Part shown: positions 15,786-47,014 of the stretch, one piece after another
Numbering within the stretch: the stretch's first letter is position 1
How the letters are laid out: each line of letters starts with the position of its first letter
DNA from: Alphaproteobacteria bacterium
Lineage (GTDB): Bacteria > Pseudomonadota > Alphaproteobacteria > RF32 > CAG-239
DNA: 64,000 bases
Reading direction: 5' to 3'
NCBI GenBank assembly: GCA_017939155.1
Contig: JAGAZZ010000008.1
Location: 5,963 to 69,962 of the forward strand
Notes under the pieces: model-generated
The model's input: only the letters and a program-made list of their open reading frames with translations
Databases searched by the model: none
Told to the model about the DNA's origin: nothing
Made by a program: the position numbers and the translations under genes

Positions 15786-18700
15786 ATGTTACAAAAAAGC
15801 CAAATACGCCGCAAAACGATTTTTTTTATGAGTATATTTAGCCTGCTTTTCTGCCAACTTATGTTTGCAACGAGGCCTAGCGCAAATGAGAATCCGACCC
15901 CGGAACAAATCTATAACGCAGCCAAGATTCGTGATGGCAAAGCTCTGCAAAACTATAAGAAATTTATTAACATTGAAGATGAAAACGGTCAAACTGCCCT
16001 CTGTTTGGCTCAACAAAATAAAGATAAATACAGTTACGAAATGCTCCTTGTTTTCGGGGCAGACCGTGAGGTGGACTGTCACGATGACAAAGACCCGATT
16101 TGTGCTATCGTCGTTGGTGAAAAATTAAAATTATCTCCCGCCGGTGCGTGGATTTTAGCCGGAACGGCAACCGCCGGGGCTATTGCCGGAATTGCCGCCG
16201 GAACAGATTTGATTAATCATCACGAGCCCTGTCCCGAAGGTTATTCCAAACGCTACAAAACCGTGGCTGATTGCGGTGTCACCGGTGCCGAGGGGTGGCT
16301 CTGGGAAGATGGCGGCATACATCACCGCGACCAATGCGGCAAATGTACCCCGAAAGAATATGACACCGGCTGTTCCATCTTATACCAATCCGTAGCAGAT
16401 TGCGGACCGCATGCAGGCGAGGGCTGGGAATGGTCAGCTTCCGGCTATTCGGGAGATGTATGGTGCGGTATCTGTACCCCGAAAATATGCCCGACAACCG
16501 AATCTCCAACCACGCGCGGCTCTTCAACTTTTTATCACACACCCTACCATTGCCCGATAAGAAAGTTTATGAAGCCGACCGCGCCCACACACGCCGGTTG
16601 GTATGGTGAAGAAGAATGTTTTACCTGTAACTATCAATGCGATGAAAAGACCGGCTTTGCCACGCAAACCGCTTGTCAAACCAATGCTGAGGGCGCTATT
16701 GGCTTCACTTGCCAGCTAGACCCCGCAACCCAATGTTATTATCGCTCTCACACGCCAAATCCCGATGCGCCGGACGGCGGCAAAAACGAATGTCCTGTGA
16801 CTGAATCCACCACCACACGCGGCTCTTCAACACTCTATAATATTCCTTATCACTGCCCCATCATCAAATTTATGAAGCCGACCACCCCCACACACGCCGG
16901 TTGGTCAGGCGATGAAGAATGCTTTACCTGTAATTATCAATGTGATGAAGAAACGGGCTTTGGCTCCCAAACCACTTGTCAAACCAATGACGAGGGCGGT
17001 ATCGGTTATACCTGCCAGCTAGACCCAACCTCAAAATGTTATTACCGCTCCCACACCCCCGACCCGGATAATCCGGACGGCGGCAGAAATGACTGTCCGG
17101 TTGATACTGCCCCAAATCGTATCGGTTCAAAAGTGGACTATATCAACCAAGCTTACTGTCCGACAAAACAATATATGACCGCAACCGGTGTTGAACGTGT
17201 CGCTTATAGCGGCGAAGAGGGGTGCTATACCTGTCTGTATAACTGTGATGAAGAAACAGGCTTTGCTTCCCAAACCGCTTGTCAAACCAATGACGAGGGC
17301 GCGACCGGTTACACCTGCCAGCTAGACCCAAGCTCTCAATGTTATTACCGTTCCCACACGCCAAACCCGGATAATCCCGATGGCGGGGAAAACGAATGTC
17401 CTAACACGGACTCTAAAACCACGCGTGGCTCATCAACCTTATATAATATCCCCGAGCATTGCCCGACAATTAAATATATGAAGCCGACCACCCCGACCTC
17501 AGCCGGCTGGTCAGGCGAAAAAGAATGTTTCACCTGTAATTATCAATGCGATGAAGAAACAGGCTTTGCTAATCAAACCACTTGCCAAACCAATGAAGCA
17601 GGCGCCACTGGCTATATATGCCAGCTAGACCCAACCTCAGGCTGTTATTATCGCTCGACCACGCCTAACCCTGATAATCCTGACCCTGGCAAAAAAGAGT
17701 GTCCGGTAGATAATGCTCAAAACCGTATTGGTTCAAAAATTGAATATATCAACCAAAACGCTTGTCCCACCAAGCAATATATGACCGTAACCGGTGTCGA
17801 ACCCGGCGCATATAGTGGTGAAGACCGTTGTTATACTTGTTTATACAACTGCGATGAAAAAGAGGGGTTTGCTTCAGAAACAACCTGTAAAACCAACGAA
17901 GCAGGCGCCATTGGCTACACTTGCCAGTTAGACCCCAAATCAGGCTGTTATTATCGCTCGACCACGCCTAACCCTGATAATCCTGACCCTGGCAAGACCC
18001 CGTGTACATCCCCCTTTGATGTCAAATATCAAGAAGTTTCAGACTGTGTCAAATACAACGGCGGTACAACCGATGGTTGGAATTGGACACAAAGCGGTTG
18101 GTCTGGCGAAGAAAAATGCGGCAATTGTGAAGCCAAAGCGTGTACGGCACCAAGCTCAACAGAGTATGAATCCACTGCAAACTGTCCTCCTCTTCCCAAC
18201 AAAATCGCCGTTGCCGTCCAAGCAACCGGCAACTACGCCGGCTCTGACCCGTGTAATGAATGTATTTACTGGTGCGACCCCGCACAACGTTCCTTTTCCA
18301 CACCGGAAGCCTGCGAAGCTAACGCCGCTGGTTCACAATGTATAGAAGCTGACGGTTGCTGGGTTGTTAAAGACGATTGTCCCGAAGGGTATCACACCTG
18401 GATACAAAATTGTAATAACAAGCAACATCCCTCAGGCTGGAAATTAGAATCTAACGGAAGCTCTAACGGCATAAGTTGTAATAAATGTGTTGAAATACCT
18501 TGCAGTCCTGCAAATGTAACCGATGTTTCAACTTGCGGGTCAACCGGAGCAGCCGGTTGGGAACTGGTTAGCAATGGTTATTCCGGAAATGACCTTTGCC
18601 AAATCTGTCAGGCTCTCACCTGTCCAAGCTCTGAAGAAACAGGGAGTTGCAGTGCGGGAACTTATGAAAACGTAACCGCCACTCCATCGGGAAATTATGC

Positions 18701-21700
18701 CGGAAACACACCGTGTTATAACTGTGATTACAGCTGTCGTAATTCTTATGAATCCAAAACAGAATGTGAAGCTGCCGCAGCAAGTACGCAATATTGCAAA
18801 GAAGCAACAACCAACATCACCTGTTGGTATCCGGTAGAATACGCTTGCCCATCAGGATATACGGCAGGCTTGAAAAAAGAAGACTGTGACACCTATAAAA
18901 ACGGTCATTATTACGACCAAACAATCGTCGTCCCCGATAGTGAAAACTCTCAAGGAATAGATAGCGAAGGTAATATAGCAAATTGTTATCAATGCGGTTT
19001 CAATTGTATCGGAGAGCACGATAACCAACCCTTAGTCACAGACAAAACCGCTCAAGGCTATGTTTATTTTAAGCTTTGGGATAATCCGGAATGTTATCTC
19101 CAAAAGCTCCCCGGAGACGGCAGTTACGGGCAATGTGTTGACAAAGACGAAAAAATTGGCTCGGCATATCCTGAAAGCTATATAAACGCGGAAGGTTGCC
19201 CGAAGATTCAAAACGCTGTGACAACAACAAACGAAAGCAGTTGGCAAATAGTAGAGCTCGTCGGTTTCTATTACGCCAGTGAACAATGCTATCTGTGCGC
19301 CAGCAATCCTTGTTCGAACCAAAAGACCGGAACCGATACACAATGCAATCAAACCGGTTTCACTAAAGGAGAAGTAGATGCTTCCATCACTTCGGGTACA
19401 ACAGCTTGCTATACCTGCAGTTGCGACACTGCAAACGGCTATTATGCTTCAGAAAGCGAAGTACCTGACTGTGCTGATAATGTTAAAAGTGTCAGCAACT
19501 ATAATGGTATGACCTGCTACTATTGCGGAACATCAACAGCCTCCTTGCTCTCCTTATTAAATGATACTGTCAACAATCAAACCCGAATAGTTTATCACGA
19601 AGAGGGAGATTATCAGGGAATTGCCAACATTAATGCTGGCGCCTCAGCCCCGATAGAGGGAGACCCGTTAAGCGGTGACGCCACAGCCTCGCTCACGCTT
19701 TATAATAGCGCGTCCAACGCCAAAATCGCATTACAGGCAGGACAAAACCGCACAACCTATAACGCTAAAGCTAACGGAACAGATGCCGAAAATGCAGTTT
19801 CCGCCAAAGGTGAACTTAACCTCATTATGCAAGACGGCGCCAATAATGTAACCGCCGCCGGCATAACCACCAATGATAACGCTTATAATGCCTATGCCGA
19901 GGGCAACGCCATAGCCGAAGGCAGAATTAATATAGAAGATACCAAATCTGCCACCAACGTCATTTATGGTATATCATCCGCGCGCAACGCATATAACGCT
20001 TATGCCAACCAAGAGCTGGCGCAAGCTTCGGGCACTATCAACATCAATACCATCACCGACAAACAAGCCTACGGTATATTTGCCGCTCAAGACATTTATA
20101 ACCAAACAGACAACCAACAAACCAGTATCGTTAATGTGCGCGGTACCGGTTCGGGGGACATCTATGGTCTGTATTCTAAGTCCGGCAATATTTATAACAG
20201 CGGGGAGGTAAATGTTTCTTCCGCGTCCGGTAATGCTTACGGTCTTTATCTTGAAAACGGCAATAACAGCCAAATTGAAAACAGCGGTCAAATTACCGTT
20301 TCAAGCAATGAGAAATCTGCCTACGGCATTTATGTCAAAGACGCTGAAAACGGCGTCACCGTTACCAATACCGGCTCAATAACCGCCACCGGCGATAGCC
20401 AAAGCCGCGGTATCAAAATTGAGCAAAATGGTCAAAACGCCACCGTCATCAACCAAGGTCAAATCACCGTTAATGGGGCACTAAATGCCGAAGAGTCCGC
20501 CATAGATTTAGGCGGCGGCAAGTTTGCTAACGCCGGCGAGATTAAATTTATCGGCGCGCAAAACCTTGATGTCTTAAACGGTAAATTCACACTTGAAAAA
20601 GGTGGGCACATAGAAGCTGACGTTTTAAGTGGTGACTTAACTATCGGCACCTCCGTTGTCAAAGAGGGCTTTAAAGATACTTATGTGGAAGAGGGGGCGA
20701 TAAAAGCTCAAGATATTCAAGACTTAAATCTCTCTTCAGAATCAGCCTTATTCACCGCTCAAGTCAAGAAAAACGCCAACGAAAACCTCTATGACGCCGA
20801 GGCAAACCGTCGCAATTTCAATGAGTTTACCCCCAATAGTTCCATCGGCAACTATCTGGAAAATAACTATCATCAGGAAAAACTGGCACAACTGTTTGAA
20901 AAGTTAAAATCCGCTAACTCTGACGCTATCCTTGCCGCCGACATCTTAAAGCAAACCGGCGCGGACATCTTGCCCAACTTGGCGCAAGAAAACTTAATGG
21001 CGTTAAGAAACTCGGCTGAGGTCATCACCGACGCTGTTCTGGCTGATAACGATGAGGAAAACCGTGTTATCTCCGGCGCTGACGCTTATTTCCAAGACGC
21101 AGAAGCCAAAAACGGCGTCACCGGTTATGATAACACCACGGCAACAGCCTATATGTTTGGCGATAAGCGCTTAGACAATAAAAACCGCTTAGGCTTAGGT
21201 TTATCCTATATGCAGATGTCAAGCTCTTATGACAACGGCGGCAGTCGTACGCAAAACTTTGTTTCCTTGTTCTTCCCGTGGTTGCACAAATTCACCGAAA
21301 AGCTCAAACTGGCCTCGGTCTTAAACTTCGGCTACGGCTGGGGCAAATTTGACCGCGGTATCGGCAACGAAGCTGACCTGACCGACTATATCTATGGTCT
21401 AAGCAACAAACTTATCTACTCTATGAATTTAGCAGATATAGCAGAACTTGAGCCGGCTTTAATGTTTAACGTCCAGGGCTACACCGCCGATGATATGAAT
21501 ATGGGTGACCTTAAAGTCAAACAAAGTAATCATATCTCTGCCGAAGCAGGAATTGGTCTATACATCAAGAAAAGCTTTTCTGATGAAAAATACGGCAAGC
21601 TGACCGCTCGTCTTGGCGGTGCTTATTATCACGAGTTTGCCAACCCGTATCGCCGAATCAGGGCAGGGTTCGCTGATGGCGTCGGCAGTTTCAGCATAAA

Positions 21701-21854
21701 CGACTATGCCGGCATATATAGCCGTGACCGCGCCGTTCTCTCTGCTATGCTGAACTATGAATACAAGCGCATTGCGCTATATTTGAAGTACAATCGCTTC
21801 ATACAGCGTAAAAACAGCCAAAACTTGGATATGGGCGTTAAATATAACTTCTAA
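15786..21854 (+). CDS. classical (type Va) autotransporter with a Cys-rich modular passenger
   Basis: 2022 aa. It has a signal peptide, one ankyrin-like unit, Cys-rich modules, beta-helix-type repeats (AYGIY.., YGLYS.., SRGIKI) and a C-terminal beta-barrel ending ...MGVKYNF. Confidence 0.85.
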   Translation: MLQKSQIRRKTIFFMSIFSLLFCQLMFATRPSANENPTPEQIYNAAKIRDGKALQNYKKFINIEDENGQTALCLAQQNKDKYSYEMLLVFGADREVDCHDDKDPICAIVVGEKLKLSPAGAWILAGTATAGAIAGIAAGTDLINHHEPCPEGYSKRYKTVADCGVTGAEGWLWEDGGIHHRDQCGKCTPKEYDTGCSILYQSVADCGPHAGEGWEWSASGYSGDVWCGICTPKICPTTESPTTRGSSTFYHTPYHCPIRKFMKPTAPTHAGWYGEEECFTCNYQCDEKTGFATQTACQTNAEGAIGFTCQLDPATQCYYRSHTPNPDAPDGGKNECPVTESTTTRGSSTLYNIPYHCPIIKFMKPTTPTHAGWSGDEECFTCNYQCDEETGFGSQTTCQTNDEGGIGYTCQLDPTSKCYYRSHTPDPDNPDGGRNDCPVDTAPNRIGSKVDYINQAYCPTKQYMTATGVERVAYSGEEGCYTCLYNCDEETGFASQTACQTNDEGATGYTCQLDPSSQCYYRSHTPNPDNPDGGENECPNTDSKTTRGSSTLYNIPEHCPTIKYMKPTTPTSAGWSGEKECFTCNYQCDEETGFANQTTCQTNEAGATGYICQLDPTSGCYYRSTTPNPDNPDPGKKECPVDNAQNRIGSKIEYINQNACPTKQYMTVTGVEPGAYSGEDRCYTCLYNCDEKEGFASETTCKTNEAGAIGYTCQLDPKSGCYYRSTTPNPDNPDPGKTPCTSPFDVKYQEVSDCVKYNGGTTDGWNWTQSGWSGEEKCGNCEAKACTAPSSTEYESTANCPPLPNKIAVAVQATGNYAGSDPCNECIYWCDPAQRSFSTPEACEANAAGSQCIEADGCWVVKDDCPEGYHTWIQNCNNKQHPSGWKLESNGSSNGISCNKCVEIPCSPANVTDVSTCGSTGAAGWELVSNGYSGNDLCQICQALTCPSSEETGSCSAGTYENVTATPSGNYAGNTPCYNCDYSCRNSYESKTECEAAAASTQYCKEATTNITCWYPVEYACPSGYTAGLKKEDCDTYKNGHYYDQTIVVPDSENSQGIDSEGNIANCYQCGFNCIGEHDNQPLVTDKTAQGYVYFKLWDNPECYLQKLPGDGSYGQCVDKDEKIGSAYPESYINAEGCPKIQNAVTTTNESSWQIVELVGFYYASEQCYLCASNPCSNQKTGTDTQCNQTGFTKGEVDASITSGTTACYTCSCDTANGYYASESEVPDCADNVKSVSNYNGMTCYYCGTSTASLLSLLNDTVNNQTRIVYHEEGDYQGIANINAGASAPIEGDPLSGDATASLTLYNSASNAKIALQAGQNRTTYNAKANGTDAENAVSAKGELNLIMQDGANNVTAAGITTNDNAYNAYAEGNAIAEGRINIEDTKSATNVIYGISSARNAYNAYANQELAQASGTININTITDKQAYGIFAAQDIYNQTDNQQTSIVNVRGTGSGDIYGLYSKSGNIYNSGEVNVSSASGNAYGLYLENGNNSQIENSGQITVSSNEKSAYGIYVKDAENGVTVTNTGSITATGDSQSRGIKIEQNGQNATVINQGQITVNGALNAEESAIDLGGGKFANAGEIKFIGAQNLDVLNGKFTLEKGGHIEADVLSGDLTIGTSVVKEGFKDTYVEEGAIKAQDIQDLNLSSESALFTAQVKKNANENLYDAEANRRNFNEFTPNSSIGNYLENNYHQEKLAQLFEKLKSANSDAILAADILKQTGADILPNLAQENLMALRNSAEVITDAVLADNDEENRVISGADAYFQDAEAKNGVTGYDNTTATAYMFGDKRLDNKNRLGLGLSYMQMSSSYDNGGSRTQNFVSLFFPWLHKFTEKLKLASVLNFGYGWGKFDRGIGNEADLTDYIYGLSNKLIYSMNLADIAELEPALMFNVQGYTADDMNMGDLKVKQSNHISAEAGIGLYIKKSFSDEKYGKLTARLGGAYYHEFANPYRRIRAGFADGVGSFSINDYAGIYSRDRAVLSAMLNYEYKRIALYLKYNRFIQRKNSQNLDMGVKYNF
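16488..18002 (+). repeat. five tandem 303-nt (101-aa) Cys-rich modules inside the autotransporter gene
   Basis: Module starts (CP..) fall at aa 235, 336, 437, 538 and 639. There are two alternating subtypes in the order A-A-B-A-B. Confidence 0.9.
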
Positions 21855-30941: not shown

Positions 30942-31033
30942 TGGCGGAGAGATAGGGATTCGAACCCTAGGTACCCCGAAAAGAGTACAATTGATTTCGA
31001 GTCAACCGCATTCGACCACTCTGCCATCTCTCC
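30942..31033 (-). tRNA. tRNA-Ser (anticodon CGA)
   Basis: 92-nt class II tRNA. GGAGAGA acceptor, anticodon loop CTCGAAA, long variable arm, GGTTCGAATCC T-arm, encoded CCA. Confidence 0.9.
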
Positions 31034-36990: not shown

Positions 36991-37018
36991 TTGTCGCATA
37001 ATATATATTACAATTTCC
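36991..37018 (+). other. degenerate dif-like site (attL of the inserted element)
   Basis: TTGTCGCATAA|TATATA|TTACAATTTCC. The first 20 nt are identical to 45302-45321, and the right arm has diverged. Confidence 0.6.
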
Positions 37019-37045
37019 CATTTCCAATAGAGATGGGGATTTTCT

Positions 37046-37747
37046 ATGTTTTCGATTTGTCCGCAAAAAGTATTTACAAACAAAAGGTTAACATCAACAG
37101 ACTTACGTGTTTATCTCTCAATACAAGGATTCGCTAATCAAGAGGGATATTGTTACCCGTCTATTGCCAAAATTGCTACAACTTTAGGCGTATGCCGCAG
37201 AACAATAGAACGGAGCTTATCACGCCTCGAAAAAGAGCAGGTAATAGCCCGCTCAAAACGTATTAAAAATGACGGCGGATATACTTCAAACGGCTATTAC
37301 TTAAAATTAGAGCCCAAAGGCGAAAACATCAATGAAACAGCCGCTTTAAACGATACGACAAATATGACGCAGGGTATACGGCAAGATTGTCGCATACCTA
37401 GCGACACAAATGACGCAACGAACTATAATCAATGTAATAATAATAATTTTAATTTTAATAATACGCGTGCGTGCGCACGCGAAGAACTCGGCAACGAATA
37501 TGTGCAGGCGGAGATAACAGAGGAAGACCGCCAAGCCGTACAAGTCGCCAAATGTTATTCTCAAAATTACAGATTTATCAAGCTACCGGACGGAAAAATC
37601 GCCATTCGTCCTGCGGCTGGCTTTGTGCTGTCTGAAACACCAGCCGCTCAAGCCATTGTTGACTGCTTAACCTATAAATTTGGCTATGACGTCATTCTTG
37701 TAGATTTTAATCAACATTTTTTAGGCGAAATTGAGATAAGGAGTTAA
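37046..37747 (+). CDS. winged-helix/HTH replication-initiator-like or regulatory protein
   Basis: LTSTDLRVYLSIQGFANQEGYCYPSIAKIATTLGVCRRTIERSLSRLEKEQVI resembles phage/plasmid replication HTH domains. It has an Asn-rich linker and no HUH motif. Confidence 0.5.
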   Translation: MFSICPQKVFTNKRLTSTDLRVYLSIQGFANQEGYCYPSIAKIATTLGVCRRTIERSLSRLEKEQVIARSKRIKNDGGYTSNGYYLKLEPKGENINETAALNDTTNMTQGIRQDCRIPSDTNDATNYNQCNNNNFNFNNTRACAREELGNEYVQAEITEEDRQAVQVAKCYSQNYRFIKLPDGKIAIRPAAGFVLSETPAAQAIVDCLTYKFGYDVILVDFNQHFLGEIEIRS

Positions 37748-37751
37748 ACCT

Positions 37752-37964
37752 ATGTATATTTTAAAAATTTTTATCAAAAATGAAAAAGGCGCGTATGTGC
37801 AAATTAAAAAATTTGAGCTTTCAGGCAAACTCGACAATGAGGCACGCACTAGAGGCGAAAAAATAGCCAAAAGCCACAATCCAAACGCAATAGCGTATTT
37901 TGAGGAAATACCTGCTGATATTGACGCAGGACGTAAACTCAAAGAAGTAACAAGGGGGATGTAA
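37752..37964 (+). CDS. small phage protein
   Basis: 70 aa; its stop overlaps the next start (TAATG). Confidence 0.45.
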   Translation: MYILKIFIKNEKGAYVQIKKFELSGKLDNEARTRGEKIAKSHNPNAIAYFEEIPADIDAGRKLKEVTRGM

Positions 37965-38221
37965 TGGCAGAAGTAGTAGGACGTATGACTTGTCCGGTTT
38001 GCGGCGAGGAAATGCAAGATTTAAAAGTTAACAAAAACCAAAAACTTTATATGTACTGCGACAATGGCTGTTGCATAAGGCTAAATTCCAAACAAAGCCG
38101 CTACATCCGCGCCCAACTGGCGCAAAAAAAGGCGGTGAGTGTGGCAAAATTAGGCTATATCCGCCCAATAACCAAATTTGACGAAAGATTATTAAACGAC
38201 GATGACGAAGACGAATTTTAG
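37964..38221 (+). CDS. zinc-ribbon protein
   Basis: CPVCG ...(17)... CDNGCC, with an acidic tail. Confidence 0.5.
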   Translation: MAEVVGRMTCPVCGEEMQDLKVNKNQKLYMYCDNGCCIRLNSKQSRYIRAQLAQKKAVSVAKLGYIRPITKFDERLLNDDDEDEF

Positions 38222-38233
38222 AAAGGTAAATCA

Positions 38234-38722
38234 ATGACAAACGAAAATATTTTAAACAACGGCGGCAACGTAAGCGATGAAGAATTTGCAGAGATTAACG
38301 AAACAGTATTTGAGGAAACCAAACCGCAAGCCGTTGTTTTATCAACAGAAGAATTTAACCAACGTTTTATCGAAATGTTTGATATGTTCGGCGATATATG
38401 GGATATGCCGGAGTTCAAAATTAATCACGAAAAAACGCTTGAAGTCGCAGGGGCTAAGCTAACAGCCGGAAAGCTCTACAATCTTGCGCAAAAATATCCG
38501 CTAATGCACTTTTTGATTGAGCCATCCGGCGGCTGGTTTGGAGATTTTTGGTTAATTGGCGTTTTTTGCTGGAGTAAGGCGGATATTGTCAGCCGGAAAG
38601 TGTCCGGCTTAACCCTTGCCGGAAAAATCCGTAACTTTTTCCAAAAAACGAGGGGTAAAATGCAAGAAACAAGCCTTTTCAAACGTTTATTTCATAAAAC
38701 AGATGCAAAGGTTAAAAAATGA
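38234..38722 (+). CDS. hypothetical phage protein (acidic N-terminus, hydrophobic segment near aa 100-120)
   Basis: 162 aa; overlaps the ATPase start (ATGA). Confidence 0.45.
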   Translation: MTNENILNNGGNVSDEEFAEINETVFEETKPQAVVLSTEEFNQRFIEMFDMFGDIWDMPEFKINHEKTLEVAGAKLTAGKLYNLAQKYPLMHFLIEPSGGWFGDFWLIGVFCWSKADIVSRKVSGLTLAGKIRNFFQKTRGKMQETSLFKRLFHKTDAKVKK

Positions 38723-39351
38723 TTAAGAAAGACGTGCAAGCGCGCCGAATAGGAATATTTGGCGCATCCGGTAGCGGGAAGACCACAAAGGCGCTTGATT
38801 TGGTGGAAAAAGTCACCCGTTTAATCGCCTTTGACCCGCTGGACGATTTAACCAAAATCAAAACCCGTATTTCAGATATGAACTATCTGAAGAATTTTGT
38901 CATAAAAAACTATGCAAAGGGCTTCCGTGTCCGCTTCGTACCGGAACTCGGCAAAGCAAAAGAGCAGTTATCCGAAATTAGCCTTTTCTTGCGCGAATTA
39001 CAGGCAGGCTATAAGTTCAACCGGCACAATGCGCTTGTCACGCTGTTTGTCGATGAGCTTGATACAAGCTTCCCGCTCAATATCAGCCGTTCAATGACTG
39101 ATAACGGATTTTATTTTCTCTGTTGCCGAGGGCGACACTACGGGATAAACATTGTCGGTATTAGTCAGCGTATGAGTTTAGTCGATTTGCCTTTTCGCGC
39201 GAACTTATCAGACTTGTTCGTTTTCCGGCTTGCAGATTTTAACGACATCAAAGCGGCAGTTCAAATGCTTGGCACACCATACCGACAACGTATTGTCGAT
39301 TTAACCAACTTTAAATACATCTACAAAAACCCTGAGGGAGTAATAAAATGA
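38719..39351 (+). CDS. small P-loop ATPase (genome-packaging-type / Zot-N-like)
   Basis: Walker A GASGSGKTT and Walker B TLFVDELD. It is 210 aa with no TM, and sits just upstream of the capsid-size gene. Confidence 0.7.
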   Translation: MIKKDVQARRIGIFGASGSGKTTKALDLVEKVTRLIAFDPLDDLTKIKTRISDMNYLKNFVIKNYAKGFRVRFVPELGKAKEQLSEISLFLRELQAGYKFNRHNALVTLFVDELDTSFPLNISRSMTDNGFYFLCCRGRHYGINIVGISQRMSLVDLPFRANLSDLFVFRLADFNDIKAAVQMLGTPYRQRIVDLTNFKYIYKNPEGVIK

Positions 39352-39500
39352 CGTTTTATGTAATCGTGTATAATTCTTGGCGGGGTATTGATGTTTTTGA
39401 ATTTAACACAGAAGCAATGGCACAATGTTTTATTCGCAACAACGAAGTAAAAGAGTTCGTTATAATTCAGGGAACACTAATTGAAAAAACTATAAACTAA
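39348..39500 (+). CDS. small phage protein (50 aa)
   Basis: Hand-translated as MTFYVIVYNSWRG...; ATGA overlap with the ATPase stop. Confidence 0.4.
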   Translation: MTFYVIVYNSWRGIDVFEFNTEAMAQCFIRNNEVKEFVIIQGTLIEKTIN

Positions 39501-39614
39501 ATTTTCTTATATAACGTACATATACATACATAAGGCAGGCGCGACTTGCGTAATGTTAAAACGGTAGGTAAACATAACCTATCGTTTTTTTAATTTTAAC
39601 AGAGGGGAAAACCT

Positions 39615-39704
39615 ATGAAATCATTACTTAAAATTATGGCAGGCGTTGTCGCTGGTATTTATGTTTACGAATACATCAAATCTGCAACATCAAAATCTAA
39701 ATAG
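39615..39704 (+). CDS. 29-aa single-TM peptide
   Basis: MKSLLKIMAGVVAGIYVYEYIKSATSKSK with a GAGGGG SD. Confidence 0.4.
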   Translation: MKSLLKIMAGVVAGIYVYEYIKSATSKSK

Positions 39705-39715
39705 GAGAAACGCTA

Positions 39716-40579
39716 ATGTCACAGGTAAAAAAAATCCTTATCCACGAATCAAAGGCTATCAGTGCCGGAACAATTTTGACCTATAATGTGCCGTCATTTG
39801 ATACGATTGACGACATCGTTCTTGAGTTCTTAAATTCCGGCGCCGCCGCAACCAAAGCAAACGTTTTAGCTGGTGTTGGCAAAATTGCCCTAAATATCAA
39901 CGGCGAACAGGTAGTTAATCTGCCTATCGCGCGTTTGTATGACATTTACGCCGCGCTCGGAACAGAAGTCACCCAAAACTTAACCAACTGTATCGGTTTG
40001 AATATAGGGCGTTATCTGTTCAAAGACTCGAACAATGAAGACTACTTTGCGTATGGTTGCGCCGATATTCAGACAATTCAGGTTCAAGTTTACCTCAATT
40101 CAACTGTTACCGGCTTGACAGATTGCCAAGTTAGCACAATCCGCCGCGCAACTAACCAGTCTCTTGGCTCTTATATCAAAGCTATCAACTACCCGCAGAC
40201 AATGAACACCACCGGTATTTCAACGGTTGACACTTTGCCGCGTGATAGCAATGAAGCTTATTTGTCAATTATGGCGCACAACGGCGGCGGTGCAATCTCA
40301 GGCGGTGAATGTGTTGTCAACGGTAACTCGGTATTTGACCCTATCAGTCAGTCTTTAGATGATTACATCGTCAACGCTCGCGGTTTAGCCGCTGTTTCCG
40401 GTGTGTTTAACTACTCTTTCTCAGACGGCGCCGTAAAAGGTATTTTACCTATGCAAGGCGTAACTGAGTTGCGTTTGAAAACCACTTTTACAACCGCACC
40501 GACAAATGGAAACTACGACCTTGTCGCCGTTTCTATTCGTAACGTACCGGCTCAAATGCTTAAAGCCGTTGCCGCTTAA
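39716..40579 (+). CDS. putative major capsid protein
   Basis: 287 aa with no TM and an AGGAGA SD, followed by a GC stem-loop. Its position after the ATPase and its size resemble tailless-phage MCPs. This is an inference only. Confidence 0.45.
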   Translation: MSQVKKILIHESKAISAGTILTYNVPSFDTIDDIVLEFLNSGAAATKANVLAGVGKIALNINGEQVVNLPIARLYDIYAALGTEVTQNLTNCIGLNIGRYLFKDSNNEDYFAYGCADIQTIQVQVYLNSTVTGLTDCQVSTIRRATNQSLGSYIKAINYPQTMNTTGISTVDTLPRDSNEAYLSIMAHNGGGAISGGECVVNGNSVFDPISQSLDDYIVNARGLAAVSGVFNYSFSDGAVKGILPMQGVTELRLKTTFTTAPTNGNYDLVAVSIRNVPAQMLKAVAA

Positions 40580-40593
40580 AGGTTTTTCAAATC

Positions 40594-40612
40594 GGGCGGG
40601 TCGCTCCCGCCC
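40594..40612 (+). terminator. GC-rich stem-loop after the capsid-size gene (attenuator / mRNA stabiliser)
   Basis: GGGCGGG TCGCT CCCGCCC, with no strong T-run. Confidence 0.3.
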
Positions 40613-40632
40613 ACTTTAGGAGATTTAGATAA

Positions 40633-40875
40633 ATGTCAGATAATGCAGGAAATTCTACGAGTTGGTGGCAATGGATTGCAAACACGGCGCAAGAAGTTTA
40701 TCAAACAAAATTAGGCGCTGATGTAGCAATGAAAAACTCGGAAGTATTAGCTCAACAGCAAGAAGATAATAACACTTTGTCATTTTTGGGAATGACATTG
40801 CATAAGGATACGCTTCTTTGGGTCGGTGGCGGTACGTTGCTGGTTGTTTTGGTTGTAGCGCTTTTAAGGAAGTAA
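40633..40875 (+). CDS. small membrane protein (C-terminal TM)
   Basis: 80 aa; ...LLWVGGGTLLVVLVVALLRK. Confidence 0.5.
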   Translation: MSDNAGNSTSWWQWIANTAQEVYQTKLGADVAMKNSEVLAQQQEDNNTLSFLGMTLHKDTLLWVGGGTLLVVLVVALLRK

Positions 40876-40879
40876 TAAA

Positions 40880-41161
40880 ATGAGTTCGAGCCAAAACAAC
40901 GCAGACGCAAATAGAAATACAGGCGGATATATTGGAGAATTAGAGGCAAACCTTGGCCTTGATGACGCTTTCAATAATCTTTTTGCAGGATTTGGCTCAT
41001 CCAGCGCAACCGCAAACTCAGGCTTATCAACTGGCAACTGGGGAACTCACTCATCTTCCATCAACATAGACAGCCCGACAATGAGCTTGTCAAAAATGAT
41101 AACGTTTTGCGGTGTAGCTCTTATCGGATATTGGCTTTTTAAGAAAATAGCGAGGAAGTAA
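40880..41161 (+). CDS. small membrane protein (C-terminal TM)
   Basis: 93 aa; ...MITFCGVALIGYWLFKKIARK. Confidence 0.5.
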   Translation: MSSSQNNADANRNTGGYIGELEANLGLDDAFNNLFAGFGSSSATANSGLSTGNWGTHSSSINIDSPTMSLSKMITFCGVALIGYWLFKKIARK

Positions 41162-41568
41162 TGGGGTTATTTAGTTCAAAATCAAAATCTAGCTCAAAAA
41201 CGACCACAAATTACACCGATAATTCAACAAATAACGAATCCGCGGCAAGTTTAGGGGCTTTGTCACACGACAACGTAGTTGTCGGCGCAGGTTCAACCTA
41301 TAACTACACGGAGGGCGGATTGACCGGCGAGAATTTAAAGAACTTGCTCGGCACGGTTGAAACTCTGAATGAACAGACAAATAGCGCTTGGGATAGTTAT
41401 GTAACAGGCGTTCAAAAATCAGCTGAAAAAGCAATGGACACAACCGCGCAAGCCTATGCGGAATCCGATAGCGAATTAAGAAACATCATAGACGCAGTGA
41501 AACCTATCGCTTTATACGCCGCAATCGCCGCAGTTTTTTATTTCATTTTTAGGGGGAAGAAATGGTAA
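41161..41568 (+). CDS. membrane-anchored protein (C-terminal TM)
   Basis: 135 aa with a Ser/Thr/Asn-rich N-terminus; ...PIALYAAIAAVFYFIF. Confidence 0.5.
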   Translation: MGLFSSKSKSSSKTTTNYTDNSTNNESAASLGALSHDNVVVGAGSTYNYTEGGLTGENLKNLLGTVETLNEQTNSAWDSYVTGVQKSAEKAMDTTAQAYAESDSELRNIIDAVKPIALYAAIAAVFYFIFRGKKW

Positions 41569-42179
41569 GCAATATAAATCTAGGTTCGGTTCAAGCGCCA
41601 TACTGGGAGCAAACTATCACTTTGCCGCCACACGGTTATCATAAAGTTCAATACGTTACCGATAACTTTCAACTTTTATCAACAAGCCTGCCAAACGCTT
41701 TAAAAGTGAGTTTTGGCGGTTCTATGATTGACACGCCTTTCCGCGCCGGTATGGGCTACCGTTTAACAGAGCCGGTACAGTTTGTAGAGCTAAGAAACGA
41801 CAACGATGTTGAATTAACTGTTGATTTTGTGCTGGGTATCGGACAAATTCAAGATAATCGTCTAAACGTGGTTGGACAAATTGACACTAGAACAACTTTG
41901 TTAGGTTATACTAAAATAGAATTTAACCATTTTAGTTTAAATGCAGGCACGACCGGCGCACGACCATCACCAAAAAACGGAATTATAGCATATAGCGTTA
42001 CAAAAGGAACACTCAGACTTAGATTAACACCACCCGGCGGAAGCTCTGATAGCGTGTATATAGAACTCCAAGAAGGACAATCATTTGAGTTTCCATCATC
42101 ACAACAAATATTAATTTATTACCAAAATCCCTCAAGTTCAGCCAAAGTCGAATTCAATCTATTTGTGGGAGAATACTAA
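41562..42179 (+). CDS. hypothetical structural protein (vertex/spike-associated?)
   Basis: 205 aa, soluble, overlapping its neighbours; lies immediately before the tail-collar gene. Confidence 0.4.
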   Translation: MVSNINLGSVQAPYWEQTITLPPHGYHKVQYVTDNFQLLSTSLPNALKVSFGGSMIDTPFRAGMGYRLTEPVQFVELRNDNDVELTVDFVLGIGQIQDNRLNVVGQIDTRTTLLGYTKIEFNHFSLNAGTTGARPSPKNGIIAYSVTKGTLRLRLTPPGGSSDSVYIELQEGQSFEFPSSQQILIYYQNPSSSAKVEFNLFVGEY

Positions 42180-42694
42180 TGACAATATTTAGCGGAGGTG
42201 GAAATAGTGGTGTAAAAGCAGGTTCTCTCTTAATGTGGGCGACAAACACTCCTCCTGAGGGGTATTTACTATGTGATGGTTCTGCTGTTTCTCGAACGAC
42301 CTATTCAGAACTTTTTAAAGTCATTGGCACAACTTTTGGCGCTGGAAATGGCTCAACAACATTTAATTTACCTACACTTAAAATTCCCGATGGAGCTGGA
42401 AATTTCACGGTGTATGGTGATGGAAACGCATTGCGTTGCCAAAATGGAGCGGGTCAACTTGGATATATGACAGCGCACCACGGGTCAGACGGTGAAGCCT
42501 ACCCAACGTTTTATACAACAAATGATATTGTAACAACTGGAGGAGGTGTCGGTTCAACCCCGAAATCTACTGCAAATGTTGCCTATGGCTTAGCACAAAA
42601 ATCTGTGGTAAGTTTGCAAGAAAACAAATCAACTGGTTTATATGTCGATTTTTCAGCTGAAACTTCAAATATAACTGCAATTATCAAATATTAG
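42179..42694 (+). CDS. phage tail-collar-domain (receptor-binding type) protein
   Basis: GSLLMWATNTPPEGYLLCDGSAVSRTTYSELFKVIGTTFGAGNGSTTFNLPTLK matches the tail-collar consensus (P.GW..CdG..l....Y..Lf..iG..fG.g....F.lPdl). Confidence 0.75.
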   Translation: MTIFSGGGNSGVKAGSLLMWATNTPPEGYLLCDGSAVSRTTYSELFKVIGTTFGAGNGSTTFNLPTLKIPDGAGNFTVYGDGNALRCQNGAGQLGYMTAHHGSDGEAYPTFYTTNDIVTTGGGVGSTPKSTANVAYGLAQKSVVSLQENKSTGLYVDFSAETSNITAIIKY

Positions 42695-42704
42695 GAGAAA
42701 TCAA

Positions 42705-43085
42705 ATGAAAGCTTATAAATACGACACCGAAAATCACAAATATTTAAAGGAAGTCACTTGTCAGTTAGACCCTTTGGAAACAATAAAAGCAGGAGAAAAT
42801 ATTTGGTTATTGCCTGCAGATTGCACATTTAAAGAGCCTTTACCACAAAAAGAGGGATATTTTGTTAAATTTGACGGAAATGATTGGATTTATGAAGAAA
42901 TACCACAACCGGAGCCGACACCTGAGCTGGTTCTTACATACGCCGATTTACGCCGCGCCGAATATCCGGCAATTCCTGAACAGTTAGATATGATTTACTG
43001 GGACAAGGTAAAAGGCACAAATAGATGGGAAGAAAAAATCAGCGAAATCAAAGCAAAATATCCGAAAGTTGATTTAAATGATTAA
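42705..43085 (+). CDS. hypothetical protein (fibre-chaperone-like position)
   Basis: 126 aa directly after the receptor-binding gene. No firm motif. Confidence 0.35.
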   Translation: MKAYKYDTENHKYLKEVTCQLDPLETIKAGENIWLLPADCTFKEPLPQKEGYFVKFDGNDWIYEEIPQPEPTPELVLTYADLRRAEYPAIPEQLDMIYWDKVKGTNRWEEKISEIKAKYPKVDLND

Positions 43086-43536
43086 GTGGTTAGCATACAT
43101 AGCCGCCGCTTATGTGGCATATAGAATATTAAAAAAGGGGTACGATATGACCAACGACCAAACAGATTATTTAGCCCGCACAATTTGGGGAGAAGCAAGA
43201 GGCGAGGGCGCTCGTGGTATGCAAGCAGTCGGCAACGTGATTATGAATCGCGTAAAAGCCGGCGGTTGGTATGGGGCAAGTATAAAAGACGTAGTTTTAA
43301 AGCCATATCAGTTCAGCGCGTGGAACGTTGGCGACCTCAACCGCGCTAAAATGTTAAACGCCACACCGGCACAATTATCAACTGCGCGAAAAATCGCCGA
43401 ACAACTACAATCTGGCGCATTACCTGATATAACCGGTGGCGCAACAAACTACCACGCAACCGGTATTTCGCCGTTGTGGGCGAAGAAAATGACCAAAACG
43501 GTACAAATCGGCAACCATATTTTTTATAAAGAGTAG
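43078..43536 (+). CDS. SleB-type cell-wall hydrolase with an N-terminal membrane anchor
   Basis: TM segment WLAYIAAAYVAYRIL, then LARTIWGEARGEG..GMQAVGNVIMNRV...PYQFSAWN (Hydrolase_2 signature). Confidence 0.8.
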   Translation: MIKWLAYIAAAYVAYRILKKGYDMTNDQTDYLARTIWGEARGEGARGMQAVGNVIMNRVKAGGWYGASIKDVVLKPYQFSAWNVGDLNRAKMLNATPAQLSTARKIAEQLQSGALPDITGGATNYHATGISPLWAKKMTKTVQIGNHIFYKE

Positions 43537-43544
43537 GGGGATAA

Positions 43545-43691
43545 ATGGGATATTTAGTTAGTTTTTTAGGCGGTGCGCTTGGTTGGGCTATTTTCGATAA
43601 AACAACCGAAAACGGCACAAAAAGCCTAAATTTAGTCGGATTGGCGGCACAAATGCTCGTCATCTATTGGGTTTACAAAAAATTGAAGTAA
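43545..43691 (+). CDS. 48-aa two-TM protein (holin-like)
   Basis: Hand-translated as MGYLVSFLGGALGWAIF...LAAQMLVIYWVYKKLK. Confidence 0.4.
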   Translation: MGYLVSFLGGALGWAIFDKTTENGTKSLNLVGLAAQMLVIYWVYKKLK

Positions 43692-43702
43692 AGGAGAAAA
43701 CA

Positions 43703-43900
43703 ATGTGGGGAACATTCTTAAAATTAGGCGGTTCATTGCTCGCAGGCTTAGGTATTGATTGGGCGTGGGATTCCTATCAAGAATCACAAGCCACGGCTGT
43801 CGAACAAGCGCAAATGAATAAACAGGCAAACTGGGGAAAGTGGATTCTAATCTCAGCGGCTGTTCTAGCAGGTTATTCAATGCTTAAAAAAGGACGGTAA
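43703..43900 (+). CDS. 65-aa two-TM protein
   Basis: ATG at 43703 after an AAGGAG SD; MWGTFLKLGGSLLAGLGI...WILISAAVLAGYSML. Confidence 0.45.
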   Translation: MWGTFLKLGGSLLAGLGIDWAWDSYQESQATAVEQAQMNKQANWGKWILISAAVLAGYSMLKKGR

Positions 43901-43903
43901 ACT

Positions 43904-44053
43904 ATGACGCAAGAGCTATTTAATCAATTACTGGCAAATAGCCCTATCGTTGGCGTTTTAATTTACTATGGGCAAAAAATCGTTCAAATCACTGAACGAC
44001 TTTCAAAAGTTGAGGGAATAATCTATGAACATTTTGGAAAAAATGAAAAATAA
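43904..44053 (+). CDS. 49-aa small protein
   Basis: Hand-translated as MTQELFNQLLANSPIVGVLIYYGQ... Confidence 0.35.
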   Translation: MTQELFNQLLANSPIVGVLIYYGQKIVQITERLSKVEGIIYEHFGKNEK

Positions 44054-44156
44054 AAGTTTTTGGGCAGGATTTTTGACTGCCTTTGCCGGTTTGGTTGGCG
44101 GTAGTCTTTCCGTACCGGATTTTTTAATCTCAATCATTAATTTAATAGGAGGCTAG
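44025..44156 (+). CDS. 43-aa single-TM protein
   Basis: MNILEKMKNKSFWAGFLTAFAGLVGG...; overlaps the previous ORF out of frame. Confidence 0.35.
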   Translation: MNILEKMKNKSFWAGFLTAFAGLVGGSLSVPDFLISIINLIGG

Positions 44157-44159
44157 GAT

Positions 44160-44291
44160 ATGGCTACACGCAAAAAACGCACATCCACGCGTAAAAAAAC
44201 GACTGCTAAACGCAAAGTTACAACACGCAAAAGAAAAATAACGAGAAAAAAGAAGAGTAGGGGCTTTCTTGCCGACTTTTTAAACTCGTAA
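44160..44291 (+). CDS. 43-aa extremely basic (Lys/Arg/Thr-rich) peptide
   Basis: MATRKKRTSTRKKTTAKRKVTTRKRKITRKKKSRGFLADFLNS with a GGAGG SD. Confidence 0.4.
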   Translation: MATRKKRTSTRKKTTAKRKVTTRKRKITRKKKSRGFLADFLNS

Positions 44292-44306
44292 AACTAAAGT
44301 TTTAAT

Positions 44307-44335
44307 TTGACTTTCTCATTTTTATTTCTCATAAT
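44307..44335 (+). promoter_or_regulatory. strong sigma70 promoter of the lipoprotein gene
   Basis: TTGACT, 17-nt spacer, CATAAT. Confidence 0.6.
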
Positions 44336-44370
44336 CTCTTAAAAGGTTTAAACTTTTAGGAGATTATTTG

Positions 44371-44736
44371 ATGAAAAAGTTGATTCTAGCAAGTATCTTA
44401 ATGCTTACAGCTTGCGCAACAGGTCCGAAAGATAGTGAAGTCGTTACTATTTTAAGTTATGAAAAATATACTGATTTATATGTAAATGACGAACTTGTCG
44501 GAATCAGCCACACACAAACAAGATTACCCTACAAAAACGCAAAAGAAACAAAAATTTACGGCAAGAAGCAGGGATGTCAAACAGTAGAGCTAAATGTTGA
44601 ATACGAATTTGATACGCCTATGCTCTTAAATCCTACAAATATCTTATATGTGCCTGAAAAATATTTAAGTTGGGACTGGTGGCGTCCATCTGAGGGAAAA
44701 ACACTATACAACGTGACACCTATTTGTAAAAACTAG
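44371..44736 (+). CDS. lipoprotein (element cargo, moron-like)
   Basis: MKKLILASILMLTAC lipobox. It has its own promoter and a TAGGAG SD. The track start at 44368 is TTG. Confidence 0.7.
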   Translation: MKKLILASILMLTACATGPKDSEVVTILSYEKYTDLYVNDELVGISHTQTRLPYKNAKETKIYGKKQGCQTVELNVEYEFDTPMLLNPTNILYVPEKYLSWDWWRPSEGKTLYNVTPICKN

Positions 44737-45148
44737 CCAATTTTACGTTTTTAATAGTGAGATAAGTTCGTACAGTAGCCGGAGTAACCTTTAGAACTTC
44801 GGCTATTTTTTTAACCGGAATATCGCATGCAGCCATCTTTTGCGCTGCATAAACCTTATGCGGGCGTATGCGCTTTTGCCATAAACTAAATTGTGCATCA
44901 ATTTTGCTCTCAATAAACCGAAGAGGCAACTCCATTTCATTAGCTATTAAAGATTTACTCTCTTCATAGCCAAATCCCGACATCAAATAATTATACAATT
45001 TGAGCGTAATCTTTGTACGTTCAAGTGCGTATGTATTTATTTTAGGGCAATTTAGAGCAAATTCTTTTATTTCTTTCATATACCGCAAAATACTATCAAA
45101 TGAATCATTTAATTCGCGTTCAACCCGCGATACTTGTAAATAGTCCAT
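44720..45148 (-). CDS. HTH DNA-binding protein (candidate lysogeny regulator)
   Basis: C-terminal VKKIAEVLKVTPATVRTYL HTH. It is the only minus-strand gene in the element. ATG at 45148 with an AAGGA SD. Confidence 0.55.
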   Translation of the reverse strand: MDYLQVSRVERELNDSFDSILRYMKEIKEFALNCPKINTYALERTKITLKLYNYLMSGFGYEESKSLIANEMELPLRFIESKIDAQFSLWQKRIRPHKVYAAQKMAACDIPVKKIAEVLKVTPATVRTYLTIKNVKLASFYK

Positions 45149-45301
45149 AGTCAAATCCTTGTGAATAATCTTAAATATTTATTAATTAATTTGTTATATA
45201 TGTTATGTATATAAAAAAATAAATTTAAAACAACTCATTTTTCTTAACGATTTTTTAAGTGTTTGGATTTATTTTGAAATAAATGAAGAGGGTTAATGGG
45301 G

Positions 45302-45329
45302 TTGTCGCATAATATATATTATGTATACT
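45302..45329 (+). other. candidate chromosomal dif site (XerC/XerD recombination site; attR)
   Basis: TTGTCGCATAA|TATATA|TTATGTATACT in 11-6-11 layout with a 16-bp palindromic core. It is close to the E. coli and B. subtilis dif sequences as recalled. Confidence 0.65.
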
Positions 45330-46204: not shown

Positions 46205-47014
46205 CTAAAATTCGCCGTATTTCTCAAATAAAGCCTCTGCGCGCTTCAAATCCTCAGGAGAATCAACCCCGCTCATTCCCTCAAACGCGCCATAATCCAC
46301 TTTGGCAATCTTGATTTTCATTCCGTTTTCTAAAAATCTCAGTTGTTCCAAACCTTCAAGTTTTTCATAAACACCTTCTTCTAACTCTTTGAACTTAAAC
46401 AAAGAATCATATTTATAGCCATAAAGACCGATATGCCGCAAAACAGGGCTTCTCCCGCCCTTTTCCCGCAAATCTGCCTCTTTGCGCACCGCCGGAATAA
46501 TGTTTTTAGAAAACCATAACGCATAGCCGTTTTTATCCGCCACACAAGTTGTTCCCGAAAATGGCGTTGTTTTTTTGCTCTCACGCAACTTGTCCAAAGC
46601 TTCCCAAGAAAGCTCCGTGCAAGGCGTAACCAAATCAACACTTTTATCTTCTTCAAACGCCTTAATCAGTTCTTCAATAAACCAAGGCGGACAAACCGGA
46701 TTATCTCCTTGTAAATTAATAATCAATTCCGGCTTTTCACCAAGAGTTTTAACCGCTTCGCACACTCGGTCTGAGCCCGTCTTGCATTTATCCGAAGTCA
46801 TCAAACACTCAACGCCGTGCTCGTCGCAAAAGCTCTTAATCCGTTCATCTTCGGTTGCCACCACAATACGCGCTTGTGCGTTTTTTGTACCTTTCTTGGC
46901 AATTTCATAAACTCTTAAGAGCATTTCTTTGCCGGCAATTTTAGCCAGCGGTTTCCCCGGAAAGCGAGAAGAGCCGTAACGTGCCGGAATAACCACCAAA
47001 GTTTTAACCATCAT
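46205..47014 (-). CDS. kdsB: 3-deoxy-manno-octulosonate cytidylyltransferase
   Basis: VVIPARYGSSRFPGKPL, NLQGDNP and related CMP-KDO synthetase motifs. Confidence 0.93.
   Translation of the reverse strand: MMVKTLVVIPARYGSSRFPGKPLAKIAGKEMLLRVYEIAKKGTKNAQARIVVATEDERIKSFCDEHGVECLMTSDKCKTGSDRVCEAVKTLGEKPELIINLQGDNPVCPPWFIEELIKAFEEDKSVDLVTPCTELSWEALDKLRESKKTTPFSGTTCVADKNGYALWFSKNIIPAVRKEADLREKGGRSPVLRHIGLYGYKYDSLFKFKELEEGVYEKLEGLEQLRFLENGMKIKIAKVDYGAFEGMSGVDSPEDLKRAEALFEKYGEF

Follow-up and report, generated by a model that had tools for sequence, protein, structure and literature searches.

How a phage of some 8 kb without a recognised recombinase gene comes to lie at one exact position in a host chromosome is the question raised by positions 36991-45329 of a 64,000-nucleotide stretch of contig JAGAZZ010000008.1, hereafter called the window. 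To judge from its genes, the whole prophage of a temperate Vinavirales phage lies here, tailless and with a predicted internal membrane and a predicted circular double-stranded DNA genome of ~8.3 kb; its host is an uncultured gut alphaproteobacterium. It lies between two unequal copies of a site that resembles dif, the target at which the bacterial recombinases XerC and XerD act to separate linked chromosomes. We consider it likely that the element is an IMEX (integrative mobile element that exploits Xer), which entered the dif-type site of its host with no recombinase of its own.

The element interrupts a single 28-bp site

The window contains exactly two copies of the 20-mer TTGTCGCATAATATATATTA, one at 36991-37010 and the other at 45302-45321, which lie 8311 bp apart and are both on the + strand. 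No third match was found in the window at up to three mismatches, and two matches occurred in none of 100 shuffled sequences. The right copy is part of a complete dif-type 28-mer of 11-6-11 layout, TTGTCGCATAA TATATA TTATGTATACT (45302-45329), whose core, CATAA-N6-TTATG, has one exact occurrence in the window, at 45308. The left copy reads TTGTCGCATAA TATATA TTACAATTTCC (36991-37018) and runs across the end of the 20-mer as ...TTA CAATTTCC. The original prediction, which had been made from the letters of the window, described this direct repeat and its spacing, the 11-6-11 layout and palindromic core of the right copy, and a left copy that keeps the left arm and the centre while its right arm is degenerate. 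Exact and mismatch searches bear it out on each point, the degenerate arm being a design that recurs in relatives from other hosts. Its counts of matching positions against the dif sites of E. coli and B. subtilis are arithmetically correct for the sequences as quoted there. The TCGCATAA of the left arm is shared with E. coli dif.

To compare the borders with unoccupied loci, public assemblies were searched for KdsB, a protein encoded close to the element (window 46205-47014, - strand). Two contigs, L001 (601 kb) and L003, encode an identical KdsB and have an empty site: their phosphatase gene is directly followed by the gene for a 218-aa (amino acid) protein, the same gene that in the window stands on the left side of the element. 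At this junction a single TTGTCGCATAATATATATTATGTATACT stands between the window's own flanks, ..attcgacacc on the left and aaatacacaa.. on the right. When the 8311 bp are taken out, the window is collinear with L001, and one 5.1-kb match of 98.1% identity spans the site. Because assemblies of the same species lack the 8311-bp segment and have a single 28-mer between identical flanks, the repeats are true insertion junctions, and the empty site with one 28-mer that had been predicted for related genomes exists. A third contig, L002, contains the whole element in identical form and is probably the same DNA as the window. In L004 the same host flank adjoins a different phage-side sequence at the same site, that is from a different phage variant, which indicates an independent integration.

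Two other candidates were rejected. The arms of a possible second dif-like remnant at 35749 are unlike either Xer arm, and a tRNA-targeting island was dismissed, as the nearest tRNA gene (tRNA-Ser, 30942-31033) lies 6 kb from the junction.

The inserted element belongs to the HGV-1 group of gut Vinavirales

The 287-aa major capsid protein has no Pfam match of its own; its homologs match P2_C and P2_N, the domains of the coat protein of phage PM2. An AlphaFold model (pLDDT, the predicted local distance difference test, 91.5) had PM2 P2 (2vvf) as its top Foldseek match, with template modelling scores of 0.76/0.81 and an E-value of 1e-17, followed by other double-jelly-roll (DJR) capsid proteins. 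With an HGV-1 capsid protein given in the supplement of Yutin et al. 2022 (PMC9502842), it shares 70% identity. That study described HGV-1 to HGV-3 of the human gut as Vinavirales of clade A that are mostly prophages of Alphaproteobacteria, reported circular HGV-1 genomes of 8343 and 8271 bp, and found that the HGV-1 group, again mostly as prophages, accounts for most reads mapping to capsid genes of tailless (Varidnaviria) phages in human-gut metagenomes. How these prophages integrate was said there to 'remain unclear'.

At least 226 clusters of related capsid proteins were present in the protein collection, many of them on contigs of ~8 kb. Among GenBank phages, the DNA of the element had no megablast match and its capsid protein no tblastn match, and a scan of IMG/VR with the capsid alignment gave no confirmed relative at the sensitivity used. 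One relative, L010, is circular (141-bp terminal overlap, 8339 bp net) and has the gene set and gene order of the element, gene for gene. Three membrane-anchored proteins are encoded after the capsid gene, and an internal lipid membrane is predicted. The contig L031 (8619 bp) was rejected as a further circular relative: it is not circular, has no attP and seems to be broken in the replication gene. The phage contigs of L009, L010, L013 and L014 were binned in metagenome-assembled genomes (MAGs) named Bacteroidaceae, Acutalibacteraceae, Lactobacillales and Elusimicrobium. Some of these contigs are short or circular, and the odd labels probably reflect mis-binning and not a broader host range.

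Attachment sites throughout the family keep one host arm and the host centre

Related loci were collected from species-representative genomes (12 loci, all in gut or rumen MAGs), and more were obtained from metagenome assemblies. In L006-L009, L017 and L028, both junctions keep the XerC arm TTGTCGCATAA, which is invariant, and the central hexamer (Table 1). The hexamer varies by host (TATATA, TGAATA, TGTCTA or TCTATA) and is the same at attL and attR of a given lysogen, with one exception of a single nucleotide. The conserved XerD arm is found at one junction only, where it regenerates the host site, and the phage-side arm is not conserved. The attP of the element thus defined consists of a perfect host XerC arm (TTGTCGCATAA), the host centre TATATA and a degenerate XerD-side arm that retains only the innermost TTA. 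The circular relative L010 carries the attP so predicted, TTGTCGCATAA TATATA TTATTTAGAAT.

The mirror image occurs as well. L013 and L016, which belong to more distant subgroups, and L100 have an intact XerD-type arm and the centre on the phage, and the 28-mer is regenerated at the other end. A half-site of this kind, one host arm with a host-matched 6-bp overlap, is the mark expected when a pair of tyrosine recombinases that recognise the host site exchange strands. Since left-armed and right-armed half-sites both exist, two host proteins, XerC and XerD, are the simplest explanation.

The right-armed attP sites lie at L100:3876-3903, L013:15153-15180 and L016:7396-7423, and in L069 (compared with L058 and L103); they are inverted and on the other side of the regenerated 28-mer. 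L100 and L058 share the same host context and the asymmetric centre TATGTA. In L011, attP-like junctions stand at 7055 and 14992, 7937 bp apart; the second is again followed by the left end of the phage, and the contig ends 72 bp further on. This indicates a tandem prophage array, or a circle that was assembled onto, or read through, an integrated copy.

The host site is probably the dif of this bacterial group

Judged by its sequence, its conservation and its behaviour in other lineages, the 28-mer is probably the dif site of this bacterial group; a second site may exist elsewhere in the genome. It shows several of the properties by which Carnoy & Roten 2009 (PMC2731167) recognised dif: homology to dif, the inner inverted repeats CATAA/TTATG, an intergenic position and a low G+C content (6 of 28 nt, or 21%; the window as a whole has 41%). 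Closeness to the maximum of cumulative GC skew, which belongs to the same list, is not seen in this genome. In its left arm and centre the site is very similar to the dif of Bartonella quintana, the reverse complement of which is TTATCGCATAA TATATA TTATGGAATTT, and the TCGCATAA of the left arm is as in alphaproteobacterial dif, that of Agrobacterium being TAATCGCATAA GATATA TTATGGAACTT (PMC2731167).

A metagenome scan with the motif TTGTCGCATAA-N6-TTATGTATAST returned 91 stretches from gut and rumen with one match each, 80 of which were loaded and analysed. Among the contigs listed, which reach 536 kb, none appeared twice. In 73 of the 80 analysed stretches the retrieved flanks contained no phage genes. 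The 80 loci have 14 different central hexamers between invariant arms, and each of the four bases is seen at the hexamer's second position; the centre of dif has been described as conserved within species and variable between them, its second position most of all (PMC2731167). Of 16 independent flank contexts, 15 have a downward step in GC skew at the site, and in 10 the sign changes from + to -, as is expected of a replication terminus.

Proposed integration by the host Xer recombinases and the explanations that compete with it

Among the ORFs (open reading frames) of the element, no integrase, recombinase or transposase family was recognised with Pfam and PHROGs, nor was any among the genes called elsewhere in the window. 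This agrees with what had been concluded from the translations, and together with the junctions, the empty sites and the relatives it supports the Xer-type (IMEX) insertion that the original prediction had proposed. Host XerC/XerD would bring attP and the dif-type 28-mer of the host into synapsis and swap strands inside the central region, which would produce a hybrid, crippled attL on the left and an intact attR of the host type on the right. Because attR is intact, the host would keep a usable site for dimer resolution. The exchange may be initiated by XerC independently of FtsK, with the Holliday junction resolved by replication or by XerD. It might instead be a XerD-first reaction like that of the satellite phage TLC-phi, driven by an unrecognised phage factor, for which the helix-turn-helix (HTH) protein beside attP would be the candidate. 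As no homolog of XafT (DUF3653) was found, the XerC-first order is slightly favoured; both are proposals.

Several observations weigh against this reading. The first concerns the position of the site. Skew was analysed in the window with extensions of 4.7 kb to the left and 5.1 kb to the right (L020, L022), in all ~74 kb of host genome. The original prediction had named a GC-skew extremum at the site as a check, and this failed: to the left and to the right alike, over window coordinates -4.7 kb to +69 kb, GC skew and GC3 skew (at third codon positions) have a negative sign. Nor is there a skew switch in L006, L007, L025 or any metagenomic contig with the kdsB flank context. The strand bias is very strong: on the + strand, GC3 skew is negative for nearly all genes of either orientation, mostly at -0.2 to -0.6. 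As the skew is uniformly negative, the site lies at least 42 kb (to the left) or at least 24 kb (to the right) from any switch, beyond the third quartile of 21 kb published for the distance from dif to the skew peak (median 7.3 kb, distances up to 200 kb; PMC2731167). Host xerC and xerD lie outside the ~74 kb of accessible sequence. Since the skew does not switch here, the identity of the 28-mer as dif rests on its sequence, its conservation and its behaviour in other lineages.

The second concerns a related host. In the 'Azospirillum sp. 47_25'-type host, whose site deduced from L028 is TTGTCGCATAA TATATA TTATGTATAAA, six places were retrieved, and in five of them the prophage has the orientation opposite to that in L028. 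The junctions of these inverted lysogens are TTGTCGCATAA TATATA TTATGCG(A/G)ACA, with two XerC-type arms, and ATCCCGTTTTT TATATA TTATGTATAAA, with a degenerate arm and the XerD arm (L025:6986-7013 and 15502-15529, compared with L028:6914-6941 and 15541-15568; L025-L030 include both orientations). No canonical XerC-XerD site is left at the locus in these lysogens, which the simple model does not predict. Apparently a left-armed attP recombined in the 'wrong' alignment; as the centre TATATA is palindromic, either alignment is permitted.

Thirdly, no Xer activation factor was recognised in a DUF3653 scan of all ORFs and eight homologs of the regulator, or with profiles of PM2 gp a and gp c. In addition, we infer the enzyme, host XerC/XerD, and the order of strand exchange from the sites. 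A further reading we regard as possible though doubtful: in place of the XafT/P15 factor of other Xer-exploiting elements, gut HGV-1 phages may carry a new and unrelated factor for Xer activation or directionality (the candidate is again the HTH protein), their target in this host clade would be an Xer site far from the point where the replication forks meet, and the palindromic TATATA would allow integration in either orientation, also in the one after which the host has no canonical XerC-XerD site.

The displacement from the skew switch and the survival of the related-host lysogens with no intact site at the locus would also be accounted for if the same prophage had used an ectopic second dif-like site, at which either XerCD, working at a distance from the terminus, or a paralogous tyrosine recombinase encoded elsewhere in the host would act. 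The arrangement is, moreover, stable across several species of the clade. However, both arms of the 28-mer are conserved in at least 16 unrelated flank contexts, which argues for a host function and not a scar. The 28-mer is also single-copy on every listed contig up to the largest, most other lineages show the terminus-like step in skew, and published distances from dif to the skew peak extend to 200 kb. We therefore judge an ectopic target to be unlikely.

It is very improbable that the phage encodes an unrecognised recombinase of its own, be it the 144-aa HTH protein, the 162-aa protein or the replication initiator, and that the likeness to dif is mimicry or coincidence. Several proteins of the element belong to no family, and the HTH protein always adjoins attP; yet no ORF has the signature of a tyrosine or serine recombinase or of a DDE or HUH enzyme, and the regulator diverges to <30% identity while the XerC arm is invariant. 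The conserved half of attP is exactly the host arm and centre, the centre tracks the host, and the variants with a XerD arm (L100, L013, L016) are easily explained with two host proteins and hard to explain with one phage enzyme. Slightly less probable still is a defective remnant or satellite whose repeats arose by target-site duplication in transposition or by homologous recombination: the element is known from sequence alone and Yutin et al. found mostly prophages in gut data, but all its ORFs are intact, its genes correspond one by one to those of circular L010, circular HGV-1 genomes have been reported, the 28-mer is already complete in the empty site, and the left copy is of hybrid make-up. 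An Xer-exploiting Vinavirales prophage at the dif-type site of the host thus remains the preferred reading.

Comparison with known systems

The original prediction considered an IMEX with capsid genes unusual. This view is out of date: Xer/dif integration was proposed for the tailless Vibrio phage NO16 (PMC9966536) and for Jorvik (PMC10589892) and has been formalised for 'dif-type DJR phages' (PMC12715192). What is new here is that the mechanism is assigned to HGV-1 phages of the gut, supported by empty sites and by the attP of a circular genome, that a XafT homolog is lacking, and that there are two anomalies: the site lies apart from the skew switch, and some lysogens have the wrong orientation.

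According to Yutin et al. (PMC9502842), Vinavirales of Alphaproteobacteria carry SleB-type lysins and variable replication genes, and clade A lacks a homolog of P15. The element shares with HGV-1 (clade A, proposed 'Mestraviridae') the ~8.3-kb genome, hosts among the Alphaproteobacteria, a lysin of the SleB type, a replication gene that is often replaced and the lack of a P15 homolog; attachment sites were not identified in that study, whereas junctions, empty sites and attP are defined here.

Rhodobacter phage Jorvik (OP588643, PMC10589892) is likewise an integrase-less, circular (8.8-kb) member of the Vinavirales from an alphaproteobacterium, with an equivalent gene order. Its short attP resembles the XerC-side half of dif, and the location of its attB varies among hosts (PMC10589892). 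It differs in its attachment sequence, TCCGATAATCAGTATT, and in its lysins, an M15 peptidase and an SLT protein in place of the SleB type. The packaging ATPase is only 25% identical to Jorvik P9 (E 3e-10), and hhalign found no significant similarity between the capsid profile and the Jorvik capsid protein. For Jorvik (L024, positions 1-16), attB lies between rcc01836 and rcc01837, genes numbered about halfway through the R. capsulatus chromosome. Going by these locus-tag numbers, and if the numbering starts near the origin, this attB may represent dif at the terminus instead of an odd position within the RuBisCO operon.

The Vibrio dif-type DJR phages, among them NO16/fNo16 and PM2, are described as IMEXs with a full-length, left-armed or right-armed attP; dif is regenerated at one of their junctions, tandem arrays occur, and the cargo region beside the lysogeny module is variable (PMC9966536, PMC12715192). 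A survey that found a few tailless Vibrio prophages at dif had left open whether host recombinases or integrases of their own were responsible (PMC11630473). Left-armed and right-armed variants are common to these phages and the present family. Their hosts, in contrast, are Gammaproteobacteria, and their attP is flanked by the repressor P16 and by P15, which is regarded as a XafT homolog in PM2-like Vibrio phages (PMC12715192) and is pfam12375 in the annotation of Yutin et al. (PMC9502842); no DUF3653 protein was found here. The ATPase is 26% identical to that of fNo16, and the capsid protein has no BLAST match among them.

TLC-phi, a satellite phage of Vibrio cholerae, has the same type of site, with a good XerC arm, a centre identical to that of the host and a degenerate XerD arm that retains the innermost T (PMC6744903, PMC9226527). 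XerD has low affinity for this arm, and XafT drives a XerD-first, FtsK-independent exchange (PMC6744903, PMC9226527). TLC-phi differs in being a satellite of a filamentous phage that needs XafT, of which no homolog was found in the element. The CTX-phi type of IMEX, in which single-stranded DNA folds attP from two inverted dif-like sites, does not match: the element is a DJR phage, and both it and L010 have a single site with a XerC arm.

Xer exploitation by capsid-forming phages is hereby extended to gut Alphaproteobacteria. The defined att sites give exact prophage borders and empty-site references, and the search motif TTGTCGCATAA-N6-TTATGTATA(C/G)T finds hosts and lysogens in gut and rumen data. 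Because no XafT homolog was found, the lineage is a natural test case for the activation of XerCD outside cell division.

Gene content of the element and its neighbourhood

All genes of the element are on the + strand except one leftward gene beside the right junction (Table 1).

Table 1. Junctions and genes of the element in window coordinates, with the junctions of related lysogens.
Feature	Position	Strand	Basis or remarks
attL	36991..37018	+	Hybrid of host XerC arm, central hexamer and degenerate phage XerD-side arm; left flank identical to L001/L003
Replication initiator, N-terminal winged helix (HTH_36)	37046..37747	+	Pfam HTH_36 2e-14; PHROG replication-initiation families, best 1e-16
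Pair of small early ORFs (one of 70 aa; one of 85 aa with CxxC...CxxxC zinc-ribbon-like motifs)	37752..38221	+	phrog_13559, function not annotated
Putative assembly factor, 162 aa (PM2 ORF h / Jorvik gp6 slot)	38234..38722	+	Position upstream of ATPase, synteny with Jorvik, kept in relatives; no family match
Packaging ATPase, FtsK/HerA type (P9-like), 210 aa, Walker A GASGSGKT	38719..39351	+	phrog_2666 3e-15
ORF of 50 aa, P7 position between ATPase and capsid gene	39348..39500	+	Position only
Double-jelly-roll major capsid protein, PM2 P2-like, 287 aa	39716..40579	+	Structure model, homologs, identity to HGV-1
Three small proteins (80, 93, 135 aa) with C-terminal transmembrane helices, P3/P8 positions	40633..41568	+	Translations, order in relatives, synteny with Jorvik
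Structural protein, 205 aa, P10/vertex position	41562..42179	+	In all relatives; no family match; role suggested by position
Receptor-binding spike, N-terminal tail-collar domain	42179..42694	+	Pfam Collar 8e-22
Protein of 126 aa, similar to tail-fibre assembly chaperones	42705..43085	+	phrog_9114 7e-11, phrog_105, phrog_7290
SleB-type cell-wall hydrolase (endolysin), N-terminal membrane anchor	43078..43536	+	Pfam Hydrolase_2 3e-24; PHROG endolysin 4e-28
Five very small ORFs: four hydrophobic (holin/lysis-factor candidates) and a 43-aa Lys/Arg-rich peptide	43545..44291	+	Translations; kept in close relatives; putative functions
Predicted lipoprotein, 122 aa, lipobox LTAC	44368..44736	+	Variable cargo slot between lysis genes and regulator
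Regulator, 144 aa, C-terminal HTH, adjoins attP (P15/XafT or TR_Z1 position)	44720..45154	-	Weak HTH matches only
attR	45302..45329	+	Intact dif-type 28-mer, regenerated, with XerC arm, centre and XerD arm; same sequence as the sole site of L001/L003
L007 junctions			attL TTGTCGCATAA TATATA TTAGGCTTATA; attR TTGTCGCATAA TATATA TTATGTATACT
L008 junctions			attL ...TGAATA TTATATTATCC; attR ...TGAATA TTATGTATAGT
L009 junctions			attL ...TGTCTA ATATTTATATT; attR ...TGTCTA TTATGTATAGT
L017 junctions			attL ...TCTATA TTTATCGGAGA; attR ...TCTATA TTATGTATAGT
L006 junctions			attL centre TATATG; attR centre TATATA (sole 1-nt exception to matching centres)

The small proteins of 80, 93 and 135 aa are, from their predicted helices, likely inner-membrane proteins of the virion. 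Conservation among the relatives is uneven. Of the two small early ORFs, that of 85 aa is kept in most relatives, whereas that of 70 aa is confined to L006 and L007, the two nearest. In the spike only the N-terminus is conserved, the C-terminus being variable. The 144-aa regulator evolves fast, with <30% identity within the family, and a search for its homologs found three close clusters only. Neither it nor the eight homologs examined matched DUF3653, and its profile comparison with PM2 gp a and gp c gave no match. Its motifs were not found in the supplement of PMC9502842, so that identity with TR_Z1 is unconfirmed.

The 43-aa ORF (44160-44291) consists almost entirely of Lys, Arg and Thr (MATRKKRTSTRKKTTAKRKV...) and is 95% conserved in L006 and L007; its product may be a DNA-condensing or membrane-interacting peptide. 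The cargo slot, which holds the lipoprotein here and a hexapeptide-repeat acetyltransferase in L033 (L033:14529-14981) and L006, is reminiscent of the hypervariable region reported from DJR prophages of Vibrio. In GC3 skew the genes of the prophage have the same negative sign, although the GC skew of the entire element is slightly positive.

Outside the element, the largest gene of the window (15009-21854) encodes a 2022-aa autotransporter on the strand opposite to that favoured by the skew and is preceded by the gene for a LexA/CI-like protein (HTH_3 and Peptidase_S24). In the right flanks of L008, L009, L012 and L017 (e.g. L008:15862-20352), the site adjoins a three-gene operon on the - strand with similar gene lengths. 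The L025-related hosts have an ABC-transporter operon (OppC-type permease and ATPase) beside the site.

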